A DNA stretch of 64,000 nt from a virus, in IMG/VR virus record IMGVR_UViG_3300049595_001870, positions 53,779 to 117,778 of that record, one strand, 5' to 3'. Positions 16,689 through 54,338 of the stretch are shown here, piece after piece. The position numbers and the translations under genes were made by a program. The notes under the pieces are model-generated. The model saw nothing but the letters and a program-made list of their open reading frames with translations. It had not been told where the DNA came from and ran no database searches. How positions within the stretch are numbered: the first letter of the stretch is position 1; each line of letters begins with the position of its first letter.

Positions 16689-17368
16689 ACAGGACCATTG
16701 CTCGCCAAGGGCCCTGGCGTGCGTTCAGACGGCCGTTCGCCCTGGACGGGTGTCCACAGGCCGGGGACTGAGATCGGGCCGTACGCCCACTCTGAGGAGC
16801 CGCTGGCGTCGAAGGACGACGACTCCGATCGGTAGACCTCCTCCTGCACCCGGTAGCCACGGGAGCGTGGGTCTGGGCTGTCTCCAACAAAGTACCCATC
16901 CTTCCACGCCACACGGTTTGTCGGCAGGGCCGCCAGCCTGCCCGTCGCCAAGGCCAGTACATGTGCGCACTTGGCCTGCTCGGGGCGGGCCAGCCAGCCC
17001 GGCGCCGACAGTGAGTCGGGAAGCCAATCGACAGTGAACAGGTACTCGCCTGGGATCGGGCCACGCCGCGTGTAGCACACGGCCTCATGCTCCAGCAGGT
17101 AGGCAAAGACCGTCACCACCGGGCGAAATGAAAAACAATCCCAGAGCTGGCAGTTCTCCAATTCCTCAGTCGCTGCGCCCTCACGCAGGGCCAGTGCATG
17201 GATCGGTAGATTGCGGAAGTGCGCGCCGCTCTTGAGCATTACATGAAATGCCAGGGCCCTGGCCGGGTAGCTCTGTATGGCGAATGCGTAGCCCTCCTCC
17301 TGGCCAGGGCAGCCAGTGGTAAAGCTGTTGTCTACCCAGACTCGCAGGTATGGGATGTCAGCGTTCAT
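16673..17368 (-). CDS. Conserved phage hypothetical protein
   Basis: GAHFRNLPIHAL, QLWDCFS, YLFTVDW, ALPTNRV motifs; start MNADIP at 17368. Confidence 0.75.
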   Translation of the reverse strand: MNADIPYLRVWVDNSFTTGCPGQEEGYAFAIQSYPARALAFHVMLKSGAHFRNLPIHALALREGAATEELENCQLWDCFSFRPVVTVFAYLLEHEAVCYTRRGPIPGEYLFTVDWLPDSLSAPGWLARPEQAKCAHVLALATGRLAALPTNRVAWKDGYFVGDSPDPRSRGYRVQEEVYRSESSSFDASGSSEWAYGPISVPGLWTPVQGERPSERTPGPLASNGPVCGAP

Positions 17369-17642
17369 ACGTAATCGGCCGTATTGATCCGTGTTTCGTC
17401 CGCTCCAGCAGTCCGTCGATGACCGCCGCGATCTTGTTGCACTGCACATCGTCCTCGTAGGCGTATATGTCTCGCACTTCCCGCAGGACGGACCGCTCCG
17501 CGTCGGTGAGCCGCAGCCGCCTTATTTCTTCTTGCAGCCATGTGTTCGCCGCCGACAGCCTCGCCGTAGCCATGTGCGTGTTGTGAGAACCAGCGGATGC
17601 AAGAGACGGCTCGGCCGCGTCTCGCGTGTTGTCAGTGTCCAT
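17358..17642 (-). CDS. Hypothetical protein whose N-terminus is encoded by antisense attC-1
   Basis: AGGAG RBS and ATG lie inside attC-1; MDTDNTRDAAEPSLASAGS leader, RLTDAER motif. Confidence 0.7.
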   Translation of the reverse strand: MDTDNTRDAAEPSLASAGSHNTHMATARLSAANTWLQEEIRRLRLTDAERSVLREVRDIYAYEDDVQCNKIAAVIDGLLERTKHGSIRPITYER

Positions 17643-17673
17643 ATCTCGCCGCTCCTGATCCTTGGCGTTCTGT
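17584..17673 (+). mobile_element. attC: attC site 1 (90 bp)
   Basis: R'' TGAGAAC, 5-nt spacer CAGCG, L'' GATGCAAG, L' CCTGATC, 6-nt spacer CTTGGC, R' GTTCTGT; two extrahelical bases. Confidence 0.8.
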
Positions 17674-17675
17674 GG

Positions 17676-17927
17676 CTACTTGCGAGCCTCGCGGATCGCC
17701 TTTGCCATCGCATCTTGGATACGCGGCGGTATCGGCACAGCCTGCGACTGAATCGCCTTCGGCTTCCTGCCGTAGACCAAAGGCCACACTCTCCAGTCGG
17801 CTCTGGTGTCTGCAATCAGCATTCGCGCAACAGCATCGGCGTCCTCTTCGCAGCGAAATATCTCATGGTGGTGAAAACGCTCGCCAACGCGAACCACTGC
17901 ATACGCAACGGGGGTGCGATCACTCAT
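17676..17927 (-). CDS. 83-aa cassette A protein (inverted relative to attC)
   Basis: Fills cassette; stop 3 nt from R'; GGAG RBS. Confidence 0.7.
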   Translation of the reverse strand: MSDRTPVAYAVVRVGERFHHHEIFRCEEDADAVARMLIADTRADWRVWPLVYGRKPKAIQSQAVPIPPRIQDAMAKAIREARK

Positions 17928-17929
17928 GT

Positions 17930-18004
17930 CTATACTCCGTTCGCCACAGAACCAGCGGATGCAAGAGACGGCTCGGCATCGTCCTGCGTGTTGTCATCGC
18001 TCAT
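17930..18004 (-). CDS. 24-aa attC-2-encoded leader peptide MSDDNTQDDAEPSLASAGSVANGV
   Basis: AGGAG-N10-ATG inside attC-2; TAG 2 nt before the ATG of 17676-17927. Confidence 0.5.
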   Translation of the reverse strand: MSDDNTQDDAEPSLASAGSVANGV

Positions 18005-18035
18005 AGTTCGCCGCTCCTGATCCTTGGCGTTCTCA
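17946..18035 (+). mobile_element. attC: attC site 2 (90 bp)
   Basis: R'' ACAGAAC, CAGCG, GATGCAAG ... CCTGATC, CTTGGC, R' GTTCTCA; 30-bp left and 26-bp right arms identical to attC-1. Confidence 0.8.
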
Positions 18036-18283
18036 CGTTGTATCGCCGGTGCCCGGCACGGGTCGCGTCACGGGTTTATCAGTCCCGCCGCTGCCGTGTC
18101 CGCCACCGGGTTCCCCAGTTGCGGAATCTGTTCGGGCTGTCGCCGCCGGCGCGGCGTCATGATTTGTGTCAGAAAAACTCATGCGGTTTTCTTTCGGCGT
18201 GAGAACCACGCGCTGCAGCGGACCCGCGATGGCGTCGGTTGGTTGTGGTTTCGTCAGCGGTCGCGGGCCGCTGATCTTTGGCG
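18030..18283 (+). mobile_element. Gene cassette B (254 bp)
   Basis: Begins in GTTCTCACG; its own R'' CGTGAGAAC is the exact 9-nt complement. Confidence 0.75.
18033..18182 (-). CDS. 49-aa low-complexity cassette B peptide (MSFSDTNHD...GDTT)
   Basis: 3' part of ORF 18033-18443; TGA lies within the antisense of R'; no strong RBS. Confidence 0.4.
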   Translation of the reverse strand: MSFSDTNHDAAPAATARTDSATGEPGGGHGSGGTDKPVTRPVPGTGDTT

Positions 18284-18289
18284 TTCTGT
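18200..18289 (+). mobile_element. attC: attC site 3 (90 bp)
   Basis: R'' TGAGAAC, CACGC, L'' GCTGCAGC, GG[A]CCCGCGA/TCGCGGGCC stem, L' GCTGATC, TTTGGC, R' GTTCTGT. Confidence 0.85.
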
Positions 18290-18292
18290 GGC

Positions 18293-18436
18293 TCACCTCG
18301 TCATCCACATGAGGCCAAGATTCGCTGTGCTGTAGCTCATCCACACCAGAAAGCCAGCCGGCGATCCTCGCCACAACTGTTCGATAGCGACGACGAAGTA
18401 GATGATGGCGACGATGAACACTAGTGGCGCGCTCAT
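18293..18436 (-). CDS. 47-aa two-TM phage membrane protein
   Basis: Below cutoff; MSAPLVFIVAIIYFVVAIEQLWRGSPAGFLVWMSYSTANLGLMWMTR; stop abuts attC-3 R'. Confidence 0.75.
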   Translation of the reverse strand: MSAPLVFIVAIIYFVVAIEQLWRGSPAGFLVWMSYSTANLGLMWMTR

Positions 18437-18451
18437 TCATCACCCCACGTG

Positions 18452-19060
18452 CTAATTAGCTTTGCCTTCGCCATCGCCAGCTCCCTCTCCAGCTTTGCTA
18501 TCCTCTCCCGCAACGTAGCGTTCAACTGTTTCAGTCGCTCCACCTCCCGCTGCGAATGCTCCTGCCTCTCCATCAATCAGTCCCAGCTTGTGACGCGGAT
18601 AAAGAATCTCCAACAACGCGCTTGCCGGCCGTAAGAATTTCTTCGGAGCCTCCAGAATCGGCACCTCATGGCCACGCTCTCGGTCGGTCGTCTTTCCCTC
18701 TTTCCATGAGTCGTCTCTGTCCAAGATCGTCAGCCACACCCATGCCCCGGTCGGCTTGGAAAGAAACACGTAGATCAGATTGATGTGGCTTTCACGCTTC
18801 ATGCCGCGCAAGTCATCGACATACACGGTGTCATACGGAAAGGACTCCGGCCCATCGAACTTCAGCGACCGCTCTTTCACTTCGATCGCCACCACGGCTG
18901 CGGCGTCTGGCGTATCGACATGTCCGGTGCGCTTGCAGTGCCTCTTGGCGACGATCTTGCGACCATGCGCCACCGCGCACCCGATCTTGCGCATCGTTTC
19001 CACCCACTTGCGTTCCGCGCGCTGGCCTTTAGCCAGCGCTACGGAAAATGAGCGCGCCAT
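18452..19060 (-). CDS. PD-(D/E)XK restriction-endonuclease-like protein
   Basis: GQRAE..TPD..IEVKER pattern. Confidence 0.6.
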   Translation of the reverse strand: MARSFSVALAKGQRAERKWVETMRKIGCAVAHGRKIVAKRHCKRTGHVDTPDAAAVVAIEVKERSLKFDGPESFPYDTVYVDDLRGMKRESHINLIYVFLSKPTGAWVWLTILDRDDSWKEGKTTDRERGHEVPILEAPKKFLRPASALLEILYPRHKLGLIDGEAGAFAAGGGATETVERYVAGEDSKAGEGAGDGEGKAN

Positions 19061-19544
19061 TGCGATTGGCTCCGAAGAATTGCCGAATGGCAGGATTCGT
19101 CTGGCAGACATCACGCCCACGGAGTACGCCCATCGCCTGCACCCTGGCGCAGCGATGACGAATCACATCTGGCATCGGATCGGTCTTGGTTATGTGACCG
19201 ACGAACCAGCAAAGCTCCTCCGGGATTGGCTCGGCCTCCTCAAACTCGGCGCGGTGCGCACGCACCTGAAAGCCCCAGCGGGTGGTCCGGCCAAAGATGT
19301 CGCCGATGTCTTCATCCGTGAGAGTCGGATCGTTCATGGCTATGCAGGCCAGGCGCTCGTCGCTCGGGCAGCGACGGCAGTGCAGGTGGATGCGGATGAT
19401 GGACTCAAACGCCTGCTCGGCTTGCTGGCACTGCTCGGCAACTTTTGACACACCCTCACGGTTGATCAGCACGCGGCGAAACACCTCGCGTGCGAAACCC
19501 AAGCAGTGATCCAATCGCCTCTCGCCACGTTCGCTTTTTTGCAC
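19029..19544 (-). CDS. Hypothetical protein, possible HTH (LTDEDIGDIFGRTTRW)
   Basis: AAGGAGG RBS, GTG start. Confidence 0.6.
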   Translation of the reverse strand: MQKSERGERRLDHCLGFAREVFRRVLINREGVSKVAEQCQQAEQAFESIIRIHLHCRRCPSDERLACIAMNDPTLTDEDIGDIFGRTTRWGFQVRAHRAEFEEAEPIPEELCWFVGHITKTDPMPDVIRHRCARVQAMGVLRGRDVCQTNPAIRQFFGANRNGALIFRSAG

Positions 19545-19648
19545 GGGGACCCTCCTTGTTTTCGACCTGCGGAGCCGCCGGCCACGCATGATCGACATCG
19601 AACACCTCCCGAAGAATCACATCAGCCGTCTGGTCCAGCAGCAGGTCG

Positions 19649-20530
19649 TTACGCTGTTCGTCCATCGATCGCATCTCCTATGCTGGTCACGCCACGCTTG
19701 CGCTCCTTGGAACGCACGTACTCGTCTCGCATGCGGGCGCGCTTCCAAGACTCGTATTCGCCCGCTGTCATCTCGCGGCCGGCGTCTGGCCGGAACACGG
19801 CACGCGGCGCCGCAGGAGCAGGCTCCGCCTCCGCGTACTCCTGAGCGCGGGACAGCCACGCCTTGAGGGCTCGGTTCCAGTCCGTCTTGCGTGCGTAGCC
19901 GCGGTTGCTCACGGCGTGCGCGTGGCACCGGGCCAGCTCGCGGTCGATGTCCACACGCGGGAAGGCTGCCCTCCAAGCCGACCGGGAGATTTCGCAGACC
20001 CCCTCAAAGCCGCCTGCCGCCGTCCAAGAAATCTTTGCAGCAGCGGGCGGACGGATTTTCGTCCGCCTCCTAATACTCTTAAGAGTATCTGGTTCTGGTT
20101 CTGGTTCTGGTTGCAGGTTGTTGACAGGGTTGACAACAGGGTTGTTGACAGGGTTGTTGACAGGGTTGACAACAAGGTTGACAACAGGGCTGGCGGGCAG
20201 TCCTTTGGCCGACCTAGCCTTGGCGACGGCCGATACCTTGCGGTCATAGGCACCCTGCTGCTTGGCCCGCTCTGCCTCCAGCCGGGGGTGCGACAGCCGC
20301 TCCTCGCTGGTGCCAGCGTCTAGGACCACCAGACGCCGCCTACAGACCGCCCAGTCTTCTGGCGACATGCCGCCCGCGATCCGGCAGCACGCCTCCATAT
20401 CGTTCGGGAGGCCGCTGGAATCCCAGGCGTACAACAAGAGCCGCATGTACCCCCCAAACTGGGAGCAGGTCATGTCGGCGCAACTGGCCAGGATGTCGCG
20501 GGTGTAGACCGGCATCCAATTGAGTCCCAT
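19649..20530 (-). CDS. Replication initiator, YdaU/DUF1376 family
   Basis: WMPVYTRD..MTCSQFGGYMRLLLYAW; internal iterons; EPEPEPD linker; C-terminal DWNRALKAWL. Confidence 0.85.
   Translation of the reverse strand: MGLNWMPVYTRDILASCADMTCSQFGGYMRLLLYAWDSSGLPNDMEACCRIAGGMSPEDWAVCRRRLVVLDAGTSEERLSHPRLEAERAKQQGAYDRKVSAVAKARSAKGLPASPVVNLVVNPVNNPVNNPVVNPVNNLQPEPEPEPDTLKSIRRRTKIRPPAAAKISWTAAGGFEGVCEISRSAWRAAFPRVDIDRELARCHAHAVSNRGYARKTDWNRALKAWLSRAQEYAEAEPAPAAPRAVFRPDAGREMTAGEYESWKRARMRDEYVRSKERKRGVTSIGDAIDGRTA
20116..20187. repeat. Six tandem 12-bp iterons GGTTG(TTG/ACA)ACA(G/A), putative origin
   Basis: Exact 12-bp period inside the initiator gene, next to TCTGGT hexamer repeats. Confidence 0.75.
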
Positions 20531-20554
20531 ATCACAGTCCTCCATGGTGAATGA

Positions 20555-20614
20555 AACCCCCGGGGGCGCAGGAGGTAGGGGAGGCGAAACCTCCGCGCCG
20601 CACCCGGGGGAGTT
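20555..20614 (-). promoter_or_regulatory. Branched hairpin between ssb and initiator RBS
   Basis: CCCCCGGG/CCCGGGGG outer stem, GGCGC/GCGCC, GGAGG with two alternative CCTCC partners. Confidence 0.45.
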
Positions 20615-21000
20615 CAGAAAGGGATTCCGCCGTCGTCTTCCTCAAACTTTGGCAACGCCTTTGTGGCGGCCGGCTTTGCTGGCGCAGCAGCCTTGGGTGG
20701 CGGCGGCGACATGATCTGCACAGACTGGACGGTGCAGACAAACGCAGACTTCTCCGCGCCGTCCTTGCCAGTCCACTTCTGCTCTTCAATGCGGCCGGTG
20801 AAGGCGACGCGCTGCCCCTTGGTGAGCAAGGCCAGAAGCCCTGCCGGGCACTCCCAATGCTCACAAGTCAGCCAAGTCGTCTGGTCATTCCGGCCGCCGA
20901 TCGCCACGCGATAACGGCTCTTGGTCTTGCCGTTGATGTCCCGGCTCTCTGCGTCACCGCCCAGCCGCCCGGTGAAACAGCACACGTTCATGTCAGCCAT
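20614..21000 (-). CDS. ssb: Single-stranded DNA-binding protein
   Basis: FTGRLGGDAE, VAFTGRIEEQKW, acidic tail DDGGIPF. Confidence 0.92.
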   Translation of the reverse strand: MADMNVCCFTGRLGGDAESRDINGKTKSRYRVAIGGRNDQTTWLTCEHWECPAGLLALLTKGQRVAFTGRIEEQKWTGKDGAEKSAFVCTVQSVQIMSPPPPKAAAPAKPAATKALPKFEEDDGGIPF

Positions 21001-21625
21001 TGACCACCTCCTCGGCAAAAGCCCGCTCGTACGCCTGCTCCGCACGGTGGAGCAGCTCCTGATCGACCTCGCCCCGCTTGGCGAACAAACGGAACTTGTC
21101 CAGCAGCCGCTGCGACAACTCCGCGTTGCGTTCCGCCAACGCCTTGCGCAGTTCGTTCTCCGTCGCAGCCGCCTCCAGCACGGCCCGTGGGTTCTTCGCC
21201 GCCGGCTTCACTTCTTGCGGCTGAGACACGGCGTTGGCGTCGTCGTCGTCGCAGCCACTCAGGGCCCCGGTGAGGCAGATCAGCAGCATGCGATGGGCGT
21301 AGGTCAGCGCGCTTTTAAAGCCCTGCATGTCCTGCTTGGAGAAAAACAGCGGTACCGACGCATTGATCTCCTCGCCGCTCCTGTGCCGCAGGCACCCCTC
21401 CGCAAACCACAGGCCGTCCACCAGCCGAGGATGGACGGTCATCGGAGCGAAGCCGTTGGCCGTCAGCGCCTCGGAGATGGCCGCATCGATGTCGCCAACC
21501 GTGCTATACGGAGTACCGCGTGGGTTGGACGGACCTTTGAAAAACGTGTTCAGCCCGCTCTGCTTGGGCTGCCGGAACTGCTGCTTGGCCTTGGCCAGGG
21601 CAGCGACGATTGCCTTCTCCTCCAT
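20993..21625 (-). CDS. erf: ERF-family ssDNA annealing protein
   Basis: KQSGLNTFFK..YSTVGDI..QGFKSALTYAHR..DDDAN. Confidence 0.85.
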   Translation of the reverse strand: MEEKAIVAALAKAKQQFRQPKQSGLNTFFKGPSNPRGTPYSTVGDIDAAISEALTANGFAPMTVHPRLVDGLWFAEGCLRHRSGEEINASVPLFFSKQDMQGFKSALTYAHRMLLICLTGALSGCDDDDANAVSQPQEVKPAAKNPRAVLEAAATENELRKALAERNAELSQRLLDKFRLFAKRGEVDQELLHRAEQAYERAFAEEVVNG

Positions 21626-22473
21626 CAGTACACCTCCTCCTTGTTGCGAACCCACGCCGGAATCTCCAGCTCCCTGATCTCCCCGTGATCCAGCGGCAGG
21701 TACTCACCTGTCGCCCTCCGCAGACGAATCAACTCCATCGTTGACAGCATTCGCTCGCCGCACTCAGCGACGTAGTCATGCGGCAGGTAGTACACATGGC
21801 ATGCGTACGGAGCCGCCGTCTGGACAAACACAAACGGCATCCGGAACGGACCCATTCCGATGGCCATGGCGCCGTTGACATACAGCCATTCCTGCTCGCC
21901 GTAGCCGTAGTCAAAGACCGAGCGATAGAGCTGGTCCCACTTGGCACTGGTGGTTTTTAGATCCCACCACCTGTCCTGGCAGCAGCCGTCCGGACGAACC
22001 TTCAGTCGGTGGCCCTCAAGATCAAAGAACACGCTGACCTGCGTCTCGGTGGTGTTCTCCACCAGATCGCGGGCGGCGCTGTTGGCCATGAGCGAGTCCA
22101 GCATCTTGCTGTACTGCTCGCACTGATCCTGCGTGCAGACGATCACGCCGATCTGCTCGGCCTCCCACGCCTTGTAGGCGTTGGTGCTGCGCGATCCGTT
22201 GGACCCCAGCACCTCTTTCGGCGGGACGCGGATCTGCTCCGCAAGGGTCTTGCCCTCGCAGACGCCTTGGACGATCTGATCGAACTCGCTGCCTCGCCTA
22301 GTGGCAGAGTTGCCTGAGAAGAGCGAGTTGCCTGCGTCCATCCACTGCTGTACCTCGCCGCCACCTTTGGCCACCGCCGAGATGAATGAGCGGCTGTCGA
22401 ATCCCTTCAGTCGGTGGTATTCTTCCCCCGGCATGCCGATGACCTTAGTCGGCAGCTTGTCAATGCTGTGCAT
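21625..22473 (-). CDS. RecE/exonuclease VIII-like PD-(D/E)XK nuclease (DUF3799-like)
   Basis: EEYH..SRS, KVRPD..WDLKTT, YGEQ..Y, FVFVQT. Confidence 0.85.
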   Translation of the reverse strand: MHSIDKLPTKVIGMPGEEYHRLKGFDSRSFISAVAKGGGEVQQWMDAGNSLFSGNSATRRGSEFDQIVQGVCEGKTLAEQIRVPPKEVLGSNGSRSTNAYKAWEAEQIGVIVCTQDQCEQYSKMLDSLMANSAARDLVENTTETQVSVFFDLEGHRLKVRPDGCCQDRWWDLKTTSAKWDQLYRSVFDYGYGEQEWLYVNGAMAIGMGPFRMPFVFVQTAAPYACHVYYLPHDYVAECGERMLSTMELIRLRRATGEYLPLDHGEIRELEIPAWVRNKEEVY

Positions 22474-22765
22474 TTATGCACTCCCCCTAGAAAAAGAAGC
22501 CCCGTCCATGGGGCGAGAAAGCGATCCGTCAGCCCCTCCGTAGGCGGCGGCCCTCCATGAACCAGCGGACGAACACGGGCAGCTCGCCCAGTGCGATGAG
22601 CGTCAGAACGACGCCAGTCATTTTCACAGTCAGAGCTGCGAAAATGGCGGCCATGAGGAGGCCGCGTAAGATCAGGTAGAGGCGACCAGTGCCGTGGCCA
22701 ATTGAGCCACGGGCGCTTAGTGGGTAGAACCCCTCCACGGCCGGCGCTTCTCCCGGAGGAACGCC

Positions 22766-23590
22766 ATGACGATCGCGGAGCTTGCCAACAAATACTGCAC
22801 CAGAGTCGGAGCCAAGGCCAGCTACGCCCACCAGTTCCGTGTCCTGACCAGACGCCTGCCTTGGCAGGTCGCCCAACTGTCCGAGGACCGAATCGACGCC
22901 TACCTGACCGATGCCCTGGGACATCTCGCGCCCTCCACCGTGGCCAAGCACAGAAGGATGCTGGCCTGCCTCCTCCAGTTCGCACGTAGCGAACGCCTCC
23001 TGAACAAACGCACAGTACCACGCCCCCTGCGAAGGGTCAAGTGCCCCCCGCCCAATCCGCGGGCGTGGAGCCACGCGGACATCCGTGCGCTGCTGTCGGT
23101 AGCCGAGCATCTGAAGGGCGGTACGCGGCAATGCGCGTACTCGCTGATTGTGCCGGCGTGGATACTGGCTGCGTACAGCACAGGGCTGCGGCGCCAGGAT
23201 CTGCTGGATCTGCGACATGACGCCATCCGTGGGTCTAGAGCAGCTGTTCGTCAGGCCAAAACTGGCTGGCCGCATGTCGTCAACCTTGATCCAGCCTCCA
23301 TTGCTGCGATCAGACGACTCCCCCGAAAAGGACCGCGCGTGTTTGGCGATCTGATTTCGGCGGTGCAGATCGTAAGGGTAATGCGGAGACTTGTCAAGCA
23401 AGCCGGCCTGGACGGCACCGGCAAATGGCTCAGACGTAGTGGCGCAACGTATTGCGAGGCCGCGGGATACGACGCAAGCGGCCATCTCGGGCACAAGTCG
23501 CCGGGCATGAAGATCCACTACATCGACCGGCTGCTGCTCGCGGAGATCAGGCCAGACGAGCCGCGCGTGCCGCCGGTGCTAGCTACCTAG
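22766..23590 (+). CDS. Tyrosine recombinase/integrase
   Basis: STGLRRQDL (R), QAKTG (K), WLRRSGAT (HxxR variant), LGHKS (H), IHY (Y). Confidence 0.88.
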   Translation: MTIAELANKYCTRVGAKASYAHQFRVLTRRLPWQVAQLSEDRIDAYLTDALGHLAPSTVAKHRRMLACLLQFARSERLLNKRTVPRPLRRVKCPPPNPRAWSHADIRALLSVAEHLKGGTRQCAYSLIVPAWILAAYSTGLRRQDLLDLRHDAIRGSRAAVRQAKTGWPHVVNLDPASIAAIRRLPRKGPRVFGDLISAVQIVRVMRRLVKQAGLDGTGKWLRRSGATYCEAAGYDASGHLGHKSPGMKIHYIDRLLLAEIRPDEPRVPPVLAT

Positions 23591-26500
23591 CAGCAGCGCC
23601 ATCGGATCCTGCTGATCGCGCTGGCGGGCGCGTTTCGCGGCATCGGACTGGATCGTCCTGTACAGCAAGTACAGGCGCCTTTGGTCTGGCGTCAGGCGAT
23701 CCAGAGCGTCCTCGGGCACGGTGATGTTCTCGTACGTCCGGACGCCCGGGGTGGTGGAGAGCGTGGCGTTAAGGACTTGGCGGGCCGCCTGCTGGCGGGC
23801 GCGATCCTCATCCACATCGCTCAACTTTAATCCGGCCAACAGATTGAACGCGGTCTTCATCAGCGCATCGCCGGGCGTTAGCCGATCGTCGGTGAGCTGT
23901 CGGTAGGTGCTGATGGCGCGCGACCCAAACGGAATGAAATTACTGGCGAACTGCTCCAGCGGGCGGCCGATCGGTCCCAGTCCCTGCTCCAAGACCGAAT
24001 ACAGGTCGGACAGATCGCGGCCAGAATACAGTTGGCGATTGGTGGCGTATTCGATCGGCGCTTTGATGAGCGGCGTCGTCTGTCCGAGGATGTTGCTGCC
24101 TGTCTTGGCAAGCGTGTCGGCAAAAACGGCCGCCGCAGTTCCGCCTGCCCCAGGCGTGAAGAGGTTAATGGACTCAAACGGCAAGTCGATGTTGGTCAGA
24201 TACCGCTGGAGCCCCTCGCCGGGCGACCAGCCTTCCGGCAAAGGGATCGCGGCCGTCTGCCGCAGATGCTCGGGGACGAAGTTTTCTTCGCTCGGCTCCG
24301 ACGCCCGGGAGATGGCGCGGATGCTCTGACCTTGCAGTCCGCCCGGCTGATACAAAAGCCGATCAGCGATCTGCGGGATAATTCGTCGCTGAAAGCTATA
24401 GAAGGGCAGGATTTTCTTCAGCCAGCGGCTCTCAAAATCGCTGAAGCTGGCCGGGCTGTAATCCAACTGAGCAAGGCGAACGGCGTCTCCGGCGGCGCCC
24501 GGGTCCGTGCCTCGCCGTATCTGCGTGAGGAACGCGCCGGTTCTGAGCGTGTCTTCGACCGCGCTTCCGACGGCGTCGTTGATCTTAAGTATCGGGTTTG
24601 TGTTCGTCGGGCGCGGCCTGCGCAAGACGCCGACGCCTCGCAAAGAGGTGAAGTCGTTGAAGAAGTCCAGCCAACTTCTTCCGGTCTGGCCACGCAACTC
24701 ACCAACGGTGCTGGAGATTGTGTCGGACTGTCCGCCAGTGTAGGTGGACCGCATCGCCTCTTCGGGGATCGACAAGTCGTCGATGACGTTTCCGCTGGCC
24801 ATGCGCTGTCCGCCGGTCTGCGCAAGGAATTCGCGGATGCGTTCTGCGTCTGTGAGCTGTTCGTAACCAGGCGCACGGCGAAGCCTTCGGGCAAGCGGCT
24901 GGTAGTTGCCCTGGCTGGCGCGGTAGGCTGCGAACTGATCTAGTGGGTTGAACATCCCAAACGCGGCGTTGGAGAATTCGCCGCTGTACAAATTGCGCGT
25001 GTGGAACGCCGGGTTCGCCAGTGCGCCGACTTTGAATGCATTGGTGAACTGCTGTATGGCGCCCAGCAGCCCGGCCTCGGCTTCCGGAACACGCGGGCGC
25101 ACTGCCAGAGTCTGGAGGGATTGCACAAGCCTGTCTGGTACGGACACGGCCGCCGGGTCCGAGCTGACCTGCGATTGCCACATGGCTTTGAACGACTCTC
25201 GGTTAAACCCGAGCGCCTCGGCGGCATCCAGCACGCTTTGCGCGCCGCCGCCCGGCACGGAGGTTGGCGGCAACGGAATGACGGCCTCTTGCAGCGCCGG
25301 CACTATCTCGGCCACGTTGGATGTGACACGCATGCGCCCTTGCTCATAGCGGCGCAGGCGATCCATGTAGTTGGTGTCAAAGAGTCCCGTGCCGGTTTCT
25401 GCAAACTGCCTGTCGGCGTCACGCAAGAGATCAACGAGGGCCGTTTCCTTGCGTTCGATGTCCTCCGTCACCCGCTGCATCATCCGCCTTTGACGGCGAG
25501 GCGTGGCGTTGAGGTAGTCCGGAGAGTTCTGGAGCCGGCGCAACTGCGCCTGGTACGGCCTCTCTACGTTGAGCGTGTCGAAAGCCTGCCGCAGTAGCAC
25601 GCGGGCGTTTGTGTCGTCGGCGGCCAGGAGACTGTCCTGCAATTGCCGGGCGTTCAGGTTCGGATCGCCGCCCGTAAGCCTGCGGAAAGTCCGACTGGCG
25701 CCTGGGATGTCGGTGTAGTCCCGCCTGCCACGGCCGAAGTTGTCGTTGGTGGCGAGCAGCACATTGCCAGGAGAGTACGGGCTGGCGGTGCGCTGGGCGG
25801 CGTTCGCTCGCTCTGGAACCTGTGGGTCCAGCCACTGCTTTACTTGGCGCACAAACCAATTCTCGCCCGTGGACCCACGCCAGCCATCCAGCTCTAGCCC
25901 TAAGTCTCTGGCCAGACGCTCCATTTCTGGCCCGACTTGTACGCCGGCGTCCCGGAGGACACGGAACTCAGGCACGTTCTCTAGAACCCAGTCGGCAACC
26001 GGGTCATAGCTTGTGCGGCCCAGCGGAGCGCCGGACATCGACGGCCCTAGCAGGTCTGGCGACTCCACGTAGTCCGTGAGCGCGTTTTGAATTGTCCGGT
26101 TGTTGAAGTTGCGGTACGCCTCTGGTATCGGAGTACCGTTCGGCATCACATCCGGAACCTGCGCGTTCATTGCATCGTAAAGCTGGCGCGTCCGCAGCGT
26201 GCCCGCCTCCTCCTGCAAAATGCGCTCGGTATTGCGGGCTACCCGGTTACGCCACTGGATCGCTGGATCCATGACGGGGCCCGCATCGGCGGTCAGCAGC
26301 GCGCGGGCGCCGGACACCAACGGGCCGATGCCTGGGGCGCTTTTGCTTGCCTCGCCTGTGCGATCTAAGAACCGCGCCAGAGAGTCGCCGGCCTGGGACA
26401 TTGTTCCCGTGCCGCCGGCCTCACCGACCGTCCAGCCAAGATTGGTGCCTGGCACACGCACATCCATCAGTGCGGCGGCGCGCTGCGTCAGATCGTCCGG

Positions 26501-53625: not shown

Positions 53626-54338
53626 CAGTACCCCAACGCCCGCGGCTCCGTGGAGCGGGGAGAGTTCATCAGGCGCCTGATCTCGTTGCCGGCCTCATCG
53701 ACAATGTGCGTTGGCGCGCCGCGGCCGTAACGCATCAAATCCCCGACGGCGCCGGCGGATCGCATGGCGGCCCCGCCAAGGCGACCGGCCACTTTGAACG
53801 GAATGGGCACGGGCAGGTACGTCTCGGGATCCGTCAGAAGATCGATCGCCGTGATGTTGCCGTCAGAGATTCCCAGACGCCGGGCGTCCTCGCGCCAGTC
53901 GTCCGGTGATCCCGGTGTTCCGGCGGCGGCTGACGGATACGCCGCAGAGATCGGAGCCCGCAGTGCCAGCTCTGCCGCCCGGCCGTAGTCGTCTGCGTTG
54001 TACGCCTGGGCCGCTTTGATGAGCGTGTCCCTTGGCCGCATGGCCGTCTCAAACACGGCGCTGTACGCCTTGCCTGGCGCGGCCTTCAGGTGCTCGTAGT
54101 AGTCCCCCGACGGGCCCGGCCGCAGGGTGTCCTGCACCATGCCCATGCGCAGCTCGCGCGGATCGTACGGCCGACCGTCGATATACACGCTGCGATCTCG
54201 CATGCCCTCCAGCACTTGGTATTCCGGCGACGCAGTAACCTCCTGCCACCTCCGCTCACGCTCGGCTGACTCCGCTGCCTGCTGCTCTGGAGAGCCGTAA
54301 AAATAATCCGTGAACCGATCGGCTATGGTTCTGGGCAT
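53625..54338 (-). CDS. Hypothetical protein
   Basis: TGATG-coupled ORF. Confidence 0.65.
   Translation of the reverse strand: MPRTIADRFTDYFYGSPEQQAAESAERERRWQEVTASPEYQVLEGMRDRSVYIDGRPYDPRELRMGMVQDTLRPGPSGDYYEHLKAAPGKAYSAVFETAMRPRDTLIKAAQAYNADDYGRAAELALRAPISAAYPSAAAGTPGSPDDWREDARRLGISDGNITAIDLLTDPETYLPVPIPFKVAGRLGGAAMRSAGAVGDLMRYGRGAPTHIVDEAGNEIRRLMNSPRSTEPRALGY

Follow-up and report, generated by a model that had tools for sequence, protein, structure and literature searches.

An inverted, integrase-less array of integron cassettes in a virus genome, and a putative translation start module on the bottom strand of its attC sites

The question raised by this locus is whether a recombination site can double as the 5' end of the gene that it accompanies. 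The locus lies in a 64,000-nucleotide stretch of a virus genome (IMG/VR record IMGVR_UViG_3300049595_001870, positions 53,779 to 117,778; hereafter the window), in which three repeats are interspersed with small leftward-reading genes (Table 1). An earlier note, made from the letters alone, had taken the repeats for integron attC sites, the cassette genes for inverted, and the antisense strand of the attC for a portable module that initiates translation and encodes a leader peptide. We assign a probability of roughly 70% to the reading that the repeats are integron attCs of a family known from Pirellulales chromosomes, that they form an integrase-less cluster (CALIN, cluster of attC sites lacking an integron-integrase), and that they belong to mirror-image phage cassettes with an attC-borne start module.

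Relatives of the repeats were sought by a 17-nt motif scan of viral contigs, which returned 60 loci, 17 with true relatives and the rest chance matches. A covariance model built on 18 copies of the repeat recovered 73 copies from 15 sources and a further 10 from two contigs of metagenome-assembled genomes (MAGs); the family comprises ~80 sites on 17 viral or MAG contigs. Its arrays are co-oriented and hold up to 15 sites at inter-attC spacings of 154-724 nt, and the sites measure 60, 67 or 96-103 nt and have unrelated loops. Covariation supports the hairpin, with compensatory changes at five stem pairs, and AAC...GTT occupies fixed model positions in 78/81 family copies, including all three in the window. 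Within the window, attC-1 and attC-2 are 88% identical without indels, attC-3 shares the common ends only, and the 117,778-bp record holds no further copies.

As a reference we used the aadA1 attC of plasmid R100, read on the aadA1 coding strand; R100 was reached by similarity. The reference reads CTAAC-5 nt-GTT-C-AAGCCG-A-... / ...-AAC-6 nt-GTTAG, and the + strand of the window AGAAC-5 nt-GAT-G-CAGGAG-A-... / ...-ATC-6 nt-GTTCT. In both, the spacers are 5 and 6 nt, and two extra bases interrupt the L'' arm, one after 3 bp and the other after 6 further bp. Since spacers and extra-base positions match those of the aadA1 attC, the top strand of the window attCs is the + strand. The likeness to classical cassettes (the aadA1 attC of In2/R100 and sedentary chromosomal integrons) extends to the R''-L''...L'-R' order, the AAC/GTT cores, a terminal structure of variable size (60-103 nt) and complementary cassette ends.

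We assessed the last of these by comparing the 5 nt after the GTT of one attC with the 5 nt before the AAC of the next. Complementarity was perfect at 45/64 junctions and reached at least 4 of 5 bases at 60/64, with a mean of 4.58, as against 2.76 for shuffled partners (maximum 3.34 in 5000 shuffles) and 2.79 for R' versus R'' of the same attC. Both window junctions were perfect: the R'' extension of attC-2 (CACAG) complements the R' extension of attC-1 (CTGTG), and the R'' extension of attC-3 (GTGAG) complements the R' extension of attC-2 (CTCAC). Taken together, aadA1-type geometry, covariation and complementary cassette ends identify the three window repeats as bona fide integron attC sites by sequence, as the earlier note had proposed.

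A CALIN is defined by two or more attC sites that point the same way within 4 kb and have no intI in their vicinity; here, three attCs lie on one strand within 702 bp, and no IntI was found. The window element is a CALIN, since the record lacks IntI and its own recombinase lacks the IntI-specific insertion. Elements of this kind have already been reported in phages: Qi et al. 2023 (PMC9892861) described attC arrays without intI in temperate and virulent phage genomes and found that attCs of virulent phages recombined with IntI1. In the parts of that report on which our comparison draws, small accessory genes, including DNA methyltransferases, are cassettes, as they are here. In the same parts, two virulent phages have one-direction cassettes with the typical structure of bacterial arrays, and bottom-strand genes or start codons inside an attC are not mentioned, whereas the window and most related viral cassettes have bottom-strand ORFs (open reading frames) and attCs that carry a Shine-Dalgarno sequence (SD), an ATG and leader codons.

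The second part of our reading concerns polarity. The array ORFs are real and all lie on the - strand, opposite the attC top strand, as had been noted; no gene of the array shows the canonical organization, in which a top-strand ORF is followed at its 3' end by the attC. As had also been observed, the stops lie at R' boxes, whose 7-bp form reads GTTCTNN: 18293-18295 is 3 nt past the R' at 18283-18289, 18033-18035 is inside the R' at 18029-18035, and 17676-17678 is 2 nt past the R' at 17667-17673. Relative to classical cassettes, the gene is therefore on the opposite strand and the attC 5' of its own ORF on the mRNA. One could instead take the - strand as the attC top strand; the cassettes would then be canonical, each start would come from the attC of the upstream cassette, and every IntI event would create a new N-terminal fusion, which is the mechanism implied by the earlier note's claim that shuffling makes fusions. 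Such a system would need the uniform frame that is seen across GGT-TCT, and it would suit the 94-aa body, which occurs in the loci behind four different leaders with the break exactly at GS/H, that is, at the R'' box. It is nevertheless highly improbable, for several reasons. Spacers and extra-base positions fit the aadA1 top strand only when the + strand is taken as top. Under the same model orientation the ORFs of Pirellulales chromosomal arrays fall on the top strand, where the ORF is longer in 18/23 cassettes and where DUF4279 and DMP19 domains are encoded. Leader-bearing attCs precede ORFs that lack a start, and leaderless attCs precede ORFs with a start of their own. Finally, the phage array L012 and the Pirellulales chromosomal contig L065 have in common a segment of ~255 nt (~95% identity) that begins exactly at the GAA/C of the far R' box and consists of a 60-nt attC and the ORF downstream of it in the bottom-strand reading. 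The mobile unit would thus be an attC followed, on the mRNA, by its gene, and the description of the cassettes as inverted is correct. Consistent with this polarity, the longer ORF is on the bottom strand in 44 viral cassettes and on the top strand in 10, and Pfam confirms an N6_N4_Mtase (1e-41) and seven DUF551 domains on the viral bottom strand.

The segment common to L012 and L065 also documents, as far as sequence can, an exchange of cassettes between phages and Pirellulales chromosomes. In L065 (5106-7412; a Pirellulales MAG contig with creatininase and aminotransferase genes), one phage-type inverted cassette stands beside two canonical ones, one of which encodes a DMP19-like (DNA-mimic) protein. 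The cassettes of the two settings differ in size, with 154-724 nt between attCs in phages and 343-1297 nt in Pirellulales arrays. In many of the cassette proteins there is either a PTLTDEER(E/T)A motif, situated near the C-terminal third, or a DUF551 core of the form W(I/T)PV(T/E)ERLP; a few small phage protein families, as opposed to bacterial-type cargo, make up the bulk of the pool.

We turn to the start module. On the bottom strand, attC-1 and attC-2 both carry the AGGAG and ATG that had been described, at a spacing of 9 nt instead of the 10 nt given, and the leader peptides MDTDNTRDAAEPSLASAGS (attC-1) and MSDDNTQDDAEPSLASAGS (attC-2) read letter for letter as quoted. The former is in frame with the 94-aa ORF; the latter forms the 24-aa ORF whose stop comes 2 nt before the ATG of the 83-aa ORF. 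The arrangement extends well beyond the window. In 41 of the 55 long viral attCs, the bottom strand has an SD followed by ATG or GTG and a frame that is open to R'', always ending ...GGT TCT. The other two bottom frames gave 6 and 0 such cases and the three top frames 0, 2 and 1, and the module was present in 1/41 Pirellulales chromosomal copies and 0/20 short attCs. There are ~14 leader types (MxxDNTxxxAEPSxASAGS, MTDETTPQDxxAMPPASAGS, MTxExEQSIPSRGS and MTHDVAGPSVASAGS are examples), in which the attC encodes 14-20 amino acids and lengths differ by whole codons only.

What follows the leaders is informative as well. Among the 35 leader ORFs that are followed by another attC, 28 (80-216 aa) extend through the entire cassette as far as a stop at the next R' box, and 4 are peptides of 24-28 aa. 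Three of these four end 2 nt before a downstream start with its own SD, or overlap it as ATGA: attC-2 of the window (2-nt gap) and its two independent analogues, L012:278-352 and L016:7005-7079 (ATGA overlaps). In L010:3659-3922 and L017:4480-4740, DUF551 starts 2 residues after the leader and has no other start, and a DNA methylase (N6_N4) domain likewise begins right after its leader with no other start; behind a leaderless 60-nt attC (L010:1981-2199), DUF551 has its own Met.

These data bear on the possibility that the antisense ATG is not used, the frame being open simply as a consequence of a sequence rich in G+C and poor in stops, and the true starts lying downstream. Long spurious ORFs do occur on both strands in G+C-rich DNA, the leader shows no codon-level selection, and the internal Met24 of the 94-aa ORF (17571-17573), the obvious alternative start, is conserved in its family. 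Met24 nevertheless has no SD, and in one relative (L077) it is the attC-derived ATG, and not the codon of the internal Met, that the upstream stop overlaps. Nor would a by-product be expected to favour one frame so strongly over the other five, to be so rare in Pirellulales relatives of the same composition, to vary in length by whole codons only, or to provide the sole start of DUF551 and methylase genes. We therefore consider an unused ATG very unlikely. Taken together, use of the attC ATG is the most economical reading, and we infer that it would be used in vivo; the antisense attC would then be the portable initiation and leader module that had been proposed, given its prevalence in viral versus Pirellulales copies, its single fixed frame and the domains that begin right after the leader.

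The conserved feature is the start and the frame, not the peptide sequence. Differences between attC-1 and attC-2 had been thought to keep the frame open and the peptide acidic and similar; the frame is indeed kept, but the 8 nucleotide changes fall in 4 codons and all 4 alter the amino acid. With every codon change non-synonymous, the peptide itself may be neutral. The SD is not placed uniformly either: in the window type it is paired in the L stem with the ATG in the loop, and in the three other leader types that were folded it is in the loop. Because its position differs among types, hairpin-gated coupling cannot be general. From the geometry we infer that translational coupling may operate across the 2-nt gap behind attC-2, in keeping with the earlier idea that ribosomes are kept loaded across inserted cassettes.

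A precedent for such coupling is ORF-11/ORF-18 of attI1, which serves cassettes that lack a translation initiation region (TIR) of their own (Hanau-Bercot et al. 2002, reviewed in PMC8876359); translation effects in cassette arrays have been treated in PMC8876359 and PMC11511950. In both systems a short ORF with SD and ATG resides in an integron recombination site and serves the adjacent cassette through coupling or fusion. The attI1 ORF, however, lies in attI, on the top strand, and acts on the first cassette only, whereas the phage module is a bottom-strand feature of attC that every cassette brings along and whose product usually forms part of the cassette protein.

How leaders and bodies come to be combined is a separate issue. 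The protein database holds >100 clusters of the 94-aa family in which the leader is included in the called proteins, with ~10 or more attC-encoded leaders, and the identical window leader occurs on at least 10 unrelated bodies. The proposal that shuffling of cassettes creates N-terminal fusions is not supported for IntI acting by itself: the canonical crossover (G/TT of R') falls between the upstream stop and the attC, so that leader and ORF body travel in one cassette, as at the L012/L065 breakpoint. The leader-body combinations, together with read-through forms and mosaic bodies, point to further exchange inside the conserved attC arms.

Derivatives of the sites are also present. In some relatives, a 48-nt in-frame deletion between the direct repeats at 17576-17587 and 17624-17635 has removed the attC 3' arm, and the protein reads MSDDNT/HMATARLS across the joint. 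Such derivatives retain the attC-derived SD and ATG (as in L078), and in L077 the attC-derived ATG overlaps (ATGA) the stop of an upstream paralogue. A 28-nt minimal remnant (L078:13237-13265; TGAGAAC-GAACAG-GATC-GCGTG-GTTCT), from which the whole L stem and loop have been deleted, still lies between a stop codon and the next gene. L077:900-1400 (-) encodes tandem LTDxEREAI...TLRGLLERL small-protein paralogues with ATGA overlaps and no attC; the C-terminal codons of its upstream gene (CTGGAGCGGCTGAA) resemble the L'/SD part of the window attC type (CAGGAGCGGCGA), which may hint at the origin of that type or be a coincidence. Six ORFs (P0008, P0031, P0050, P0083, P0087 and P0103) read through the entire attC bottom strand (...QNTQDQERRDM...) and are fusion proteins in which the attC is an in-frame linker of two cassette products. 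Fused integron cassettes, in which loss of an attC gives an in-frame gene fusion, are known (PMC4670013). To judge from the portions of that paper used here, they resemble our read-through and 48-nt deletion forms in that cassettes are joined or fixed via a translated or truncated attC, and differ in that the known cases are rare top-strand accidents, whereas here the whole attC bottom strand is open by family design.

We next consider the likely host and the source of integrase. A 24-nt core of the short attC type matches a Pirellulales MAG contig and a second MAG contig, the covariance model detected the attC family in 16/151 Pirellulales genomes sampled, and one protein cluster of the 94-aa family is labelled Planctomycetia. 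Pirellulales (Planctomycetota) are the likely host group. The Pirellulales MAG matched by the core has two full IntI genes (435 and 388 bits; cut-off 265), and no attCs of this family were found beside them on the contig parts examined. TIGR02249, the IntI model, matched nothing in this record and nothing in ten further viral records with arrays, and an IntI with its additional domain next to the array, as in a complete integron, was not found. A small Xer-like tyrosine recombinase (PF00589) is present in 6/6 array-bearing records tested. We considered these phage enzymes as hidden IntIs and rejected the idea, as they fall below TIGR02249 and lack the IntI-specific insertion present in both Pirellulales IntIs. 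In this record both of two syntenic units encode one (~28 bits; window 22766-23590, +, and record 19938-20384), which reads against the genes around it and is overlapped by a 329-aa ORF on the - strand.

The foregoing can also be read to mean that the sites derive from attCs but are no longer IntI substrates. They would then be conserved intergenic linkers, comparable to the PeSL cassettes of T4 or lambdoid boundary sequences, small genes would be shuffled by homologous recombination or by the phage Xer-like recombinase, and the embedded SD and ATG would be the selected function. PeSLs (promoter-early stem-loops) carry a promoter and recombine by homology. In T4-type phages, Arbiol et al. are said to have described in 2010 PeSL cassettes whose repeated stem-loops flank accessory ORFs and are thought to mediate shuffling. 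The window shares with them repeated intergenic stem-loops that border small accessory ORFs in a hyperplastic phage region. A linker of this sort would agree with the absence of IntI from all 11 viral records and the presence of a tyrosine recombinase in the six tested, with exchange on both sides of a body and within bodies, with one body behind ~10 or more leaders and one leader before 10 or more bodies, and with the survival of half-sites and the 28-nt remnant as start modules. We nonetheless find it unlikely, since extrahelical-base geometry and AAC/GTT have been kept across very divergent loops, as expected under continued selection for IntI recognition, and the L012/L065 breakpoint coincides exactly with the canonical crossover. 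In addition, the IntI-specific insertion is missing from the phage recombinases, and the same recombinase occurs in a sister unit that is free of attCs. In further distinction from PeSLs, the window repeats have full attC anatomy and a site-specific cassette signature at their junctions, and no promoter-like site was found: between 16500 and 19500, no sigma-70-like promoter or terminator-like site overlaps the attCs, in a scan that does not cover planctomycete-specific promoters.

Several observations weigh against inverted, IntI-mobilized cassettes with an attC-borne start, and keep our estimate from being higher. The first bottom-strand extrahelical base is C where the canonical base is G (C and T in the window attCs, G and T in aadA1), and given this substitution the window attCs are candidate substrates of IntI. 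The hairpins are not more stable than shuffles of these G+C-rich sequences (z of +0.2 to -1.8 as RNA and +0.7 to -2.0 as DNA), so the structural case rests on covariation. No IntI lies beside any examined array of this attC family, and the window element, unlike classical integrons, has neither attI nor the cassette promoter Pc. Simple IntI shuffling does not explain one body behind many leaders. Leader codons lack a third-position excess, and the codon-position test thus fails to bear out selection on the antisense peptide. Lastly, the 94-aa cassette lacks a distal R' half-site and merges into the backbone; we tried TATGAAC at 17362-17368 as the missing half-site and rejected it, since the same ATGAACGC start is seen in the backbone gene of the attC-free sister unit. 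Folding-dependent recombination of the bottom strand by IntI is treated here as a candidate property with indirect signs, namely the presence of the family in Pirellulales genomes, one of them with IntI genes, and the GAA/C breakpoint.

In the explanation that we favour, the array would sit in the early/replication operon of the phage. Each cassette would be a mirror image, its gene on the attC bottom strand and its mRNA running from attC through ORF to a stop in the R' box extension. Long attCs (~100 nt) would have acquired an SD and an ATG in the loop or upper stem, and the remaining L'', spacer and R'' would be read in one fixed frame whose ...A-S-A-G-S end makes a short flexible N-terminal leader. 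Each cassette would be a self-contained translation unit that could be inserted at any point of a polycistronic phage transcript. Behind attC-2, and wherever else a cassette gene brings a start codon of its own, a 24-aa leader ORF that ends 2 nt before that start, or overlaps it, would fit translational coupling. As the phage has no IntI, cassettes would presumably be moved by that of the host. A bolder version, which we think possible yet doubtful, holds that phages keep a mirror-image integron cassette system of their own, in which a 60-100-nt element is at once recombination site and mRNA start module (SD, ATG and a benign Gly/Ser-rich tag), with the bottom strand on the sense strand. Were this so, transcription of the early operon would expose the non-template bottom strand as single-stranded DNA, shuffling of cassettes by host IntI would be coupled to phage gene expression, and accessory (candidate anti-defence) genes would be plug-and-play translation units swapped among phages and host chromosomes.

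In integron biology, cassettes are taken to be promoterless ORFs, each with an attC behind it, that are expressed from Pc, and attC hairpins are assumed either to inhibit translation or, at best, to leave it unaffected. The lineage of cassettes described here (~80 sites, 17 contigs, >100 protein clusters) would reverse the assumption, with a recombination site that forms the gene's 5' end and contributes the start codon. Neither bottom-strand start modules in attC nor phage arrays inverted throughout turned up in our literature search. If confirmed, the finding would mean that attC sequences have room for coding and translation signals while attC anatomy is retained, and it would explain how very small TIR-less ORFs are expressed wherever they are inserted in a phage operon. 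Annotation would be affected too: such genes may be given the wrong orientation or a truncated form by gene callers and by cassette analyses that expect the gene on the top strand. Derivatives with half-sites or deletions would offer a rare view of cassettes becoming fixed as ordinary genes.

The record itself sheds light on how the array arose. It consists of two syntenic units, offset by ~57 kb and ~66% identical in nucleotide sequence (window 12947-24580 versus record 9252-21476, L101), which may be tandem related prophages or an assembly join; a CheckV completeness of 100% may thus be misleading. In the sister unit (L101), the 47-aa membrane-protein gene, a 66-aa LTDEEREAI-family gene that has its own SD, and the phrog_3704 gene follow one another in this order with no attC between them, and the Xer-like recombinase is present there too. 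The attC-free arrangement indicates that the spot in the window is an expansion by three attCs and two extra small ORFs. The resident LTDEEREAI-family gene is now predicted to start from attC-1. A search for close relatives through the phrog_3704 backbone protein gave one relative only, at 38%, without attC.

Table 1. Positions in the window of the attC array, its open reading frames and neighbouring features
Feature	Position	Strand	Details	Score
attC-1	17586-17671	+	R'' AGAAC 17586-17590; L'' from 17596; L' up to 17660; R' GTTCT 17667-17671; geometry as in aadA1 attC; bottom-strand SD AGGAG 17652-17656, ATG 17640-17642	105.8 bits
attC-2	17948-18033	+	bottom-strand SD 18014-18018, ATG 18002-18004	102.5 bits
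attC-3	18202-18287	+	R/L boxes as in attC-1 and attC-2; centre different; antisense start codon absent	77.1 bits
94-aa ORF	17358-17642	-	codons 1-19 from attC-1 (17586-17642); body of the HNTHMATARLS...LTD(A/E)ER family
83-aa cassette ORF	17676-17927	-	own GGAG SD; stop 2 nt beyond attC-1 R' box
24-aa leader ORF of attC-2	17930-18004	-	stop TAG 17930-17932, 2 nt ahead of next ATG
49-aa low-complexity ORF	18033-18182	-	between attC-3 and attC-2; stop TGA within attC-2 R'; weakest gene call here
47-aa membrane-protein gene	18293-18436	-	phage backbone; attC-3 R' side directly after stop; orthologue L101:6272-6415
phrog_3704 gene (annotated 'ferredoxin')	16673-17368	-	phage backbone; orthologue L101:5419-6057	E 5.5e-30
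12-nt direct-repeat pair	17576-17587 and 17624-17635	+	48 nt apart; flank attC-1 3' arm (coding-strand reading)
Xer-like tyrosine recombinase	22766-23590	+	4.5 kb from array; PF00589	27.7 bits

Among the array genes, the 83-aa ORF has a PVAYAV motif, similar to a PVAWAV motif found after some attC leaders elsewhere. A 136-aa frame that overlaps the 49-aa ORF had no Pfam or PHROG matches. The 94-aa ORF overlaps at its end with the start of the phrog_3704 gene, which lies directly downstream of the array. At 15208-16114 (-), a short way downstream of the array region, are two neighbouring ORFs with HNH-type Cys/His motifs and an overlap of ~80 nt; the first was recognized by eye, and the second (15593-16114) matches HNH-endonuclease PHROGs.

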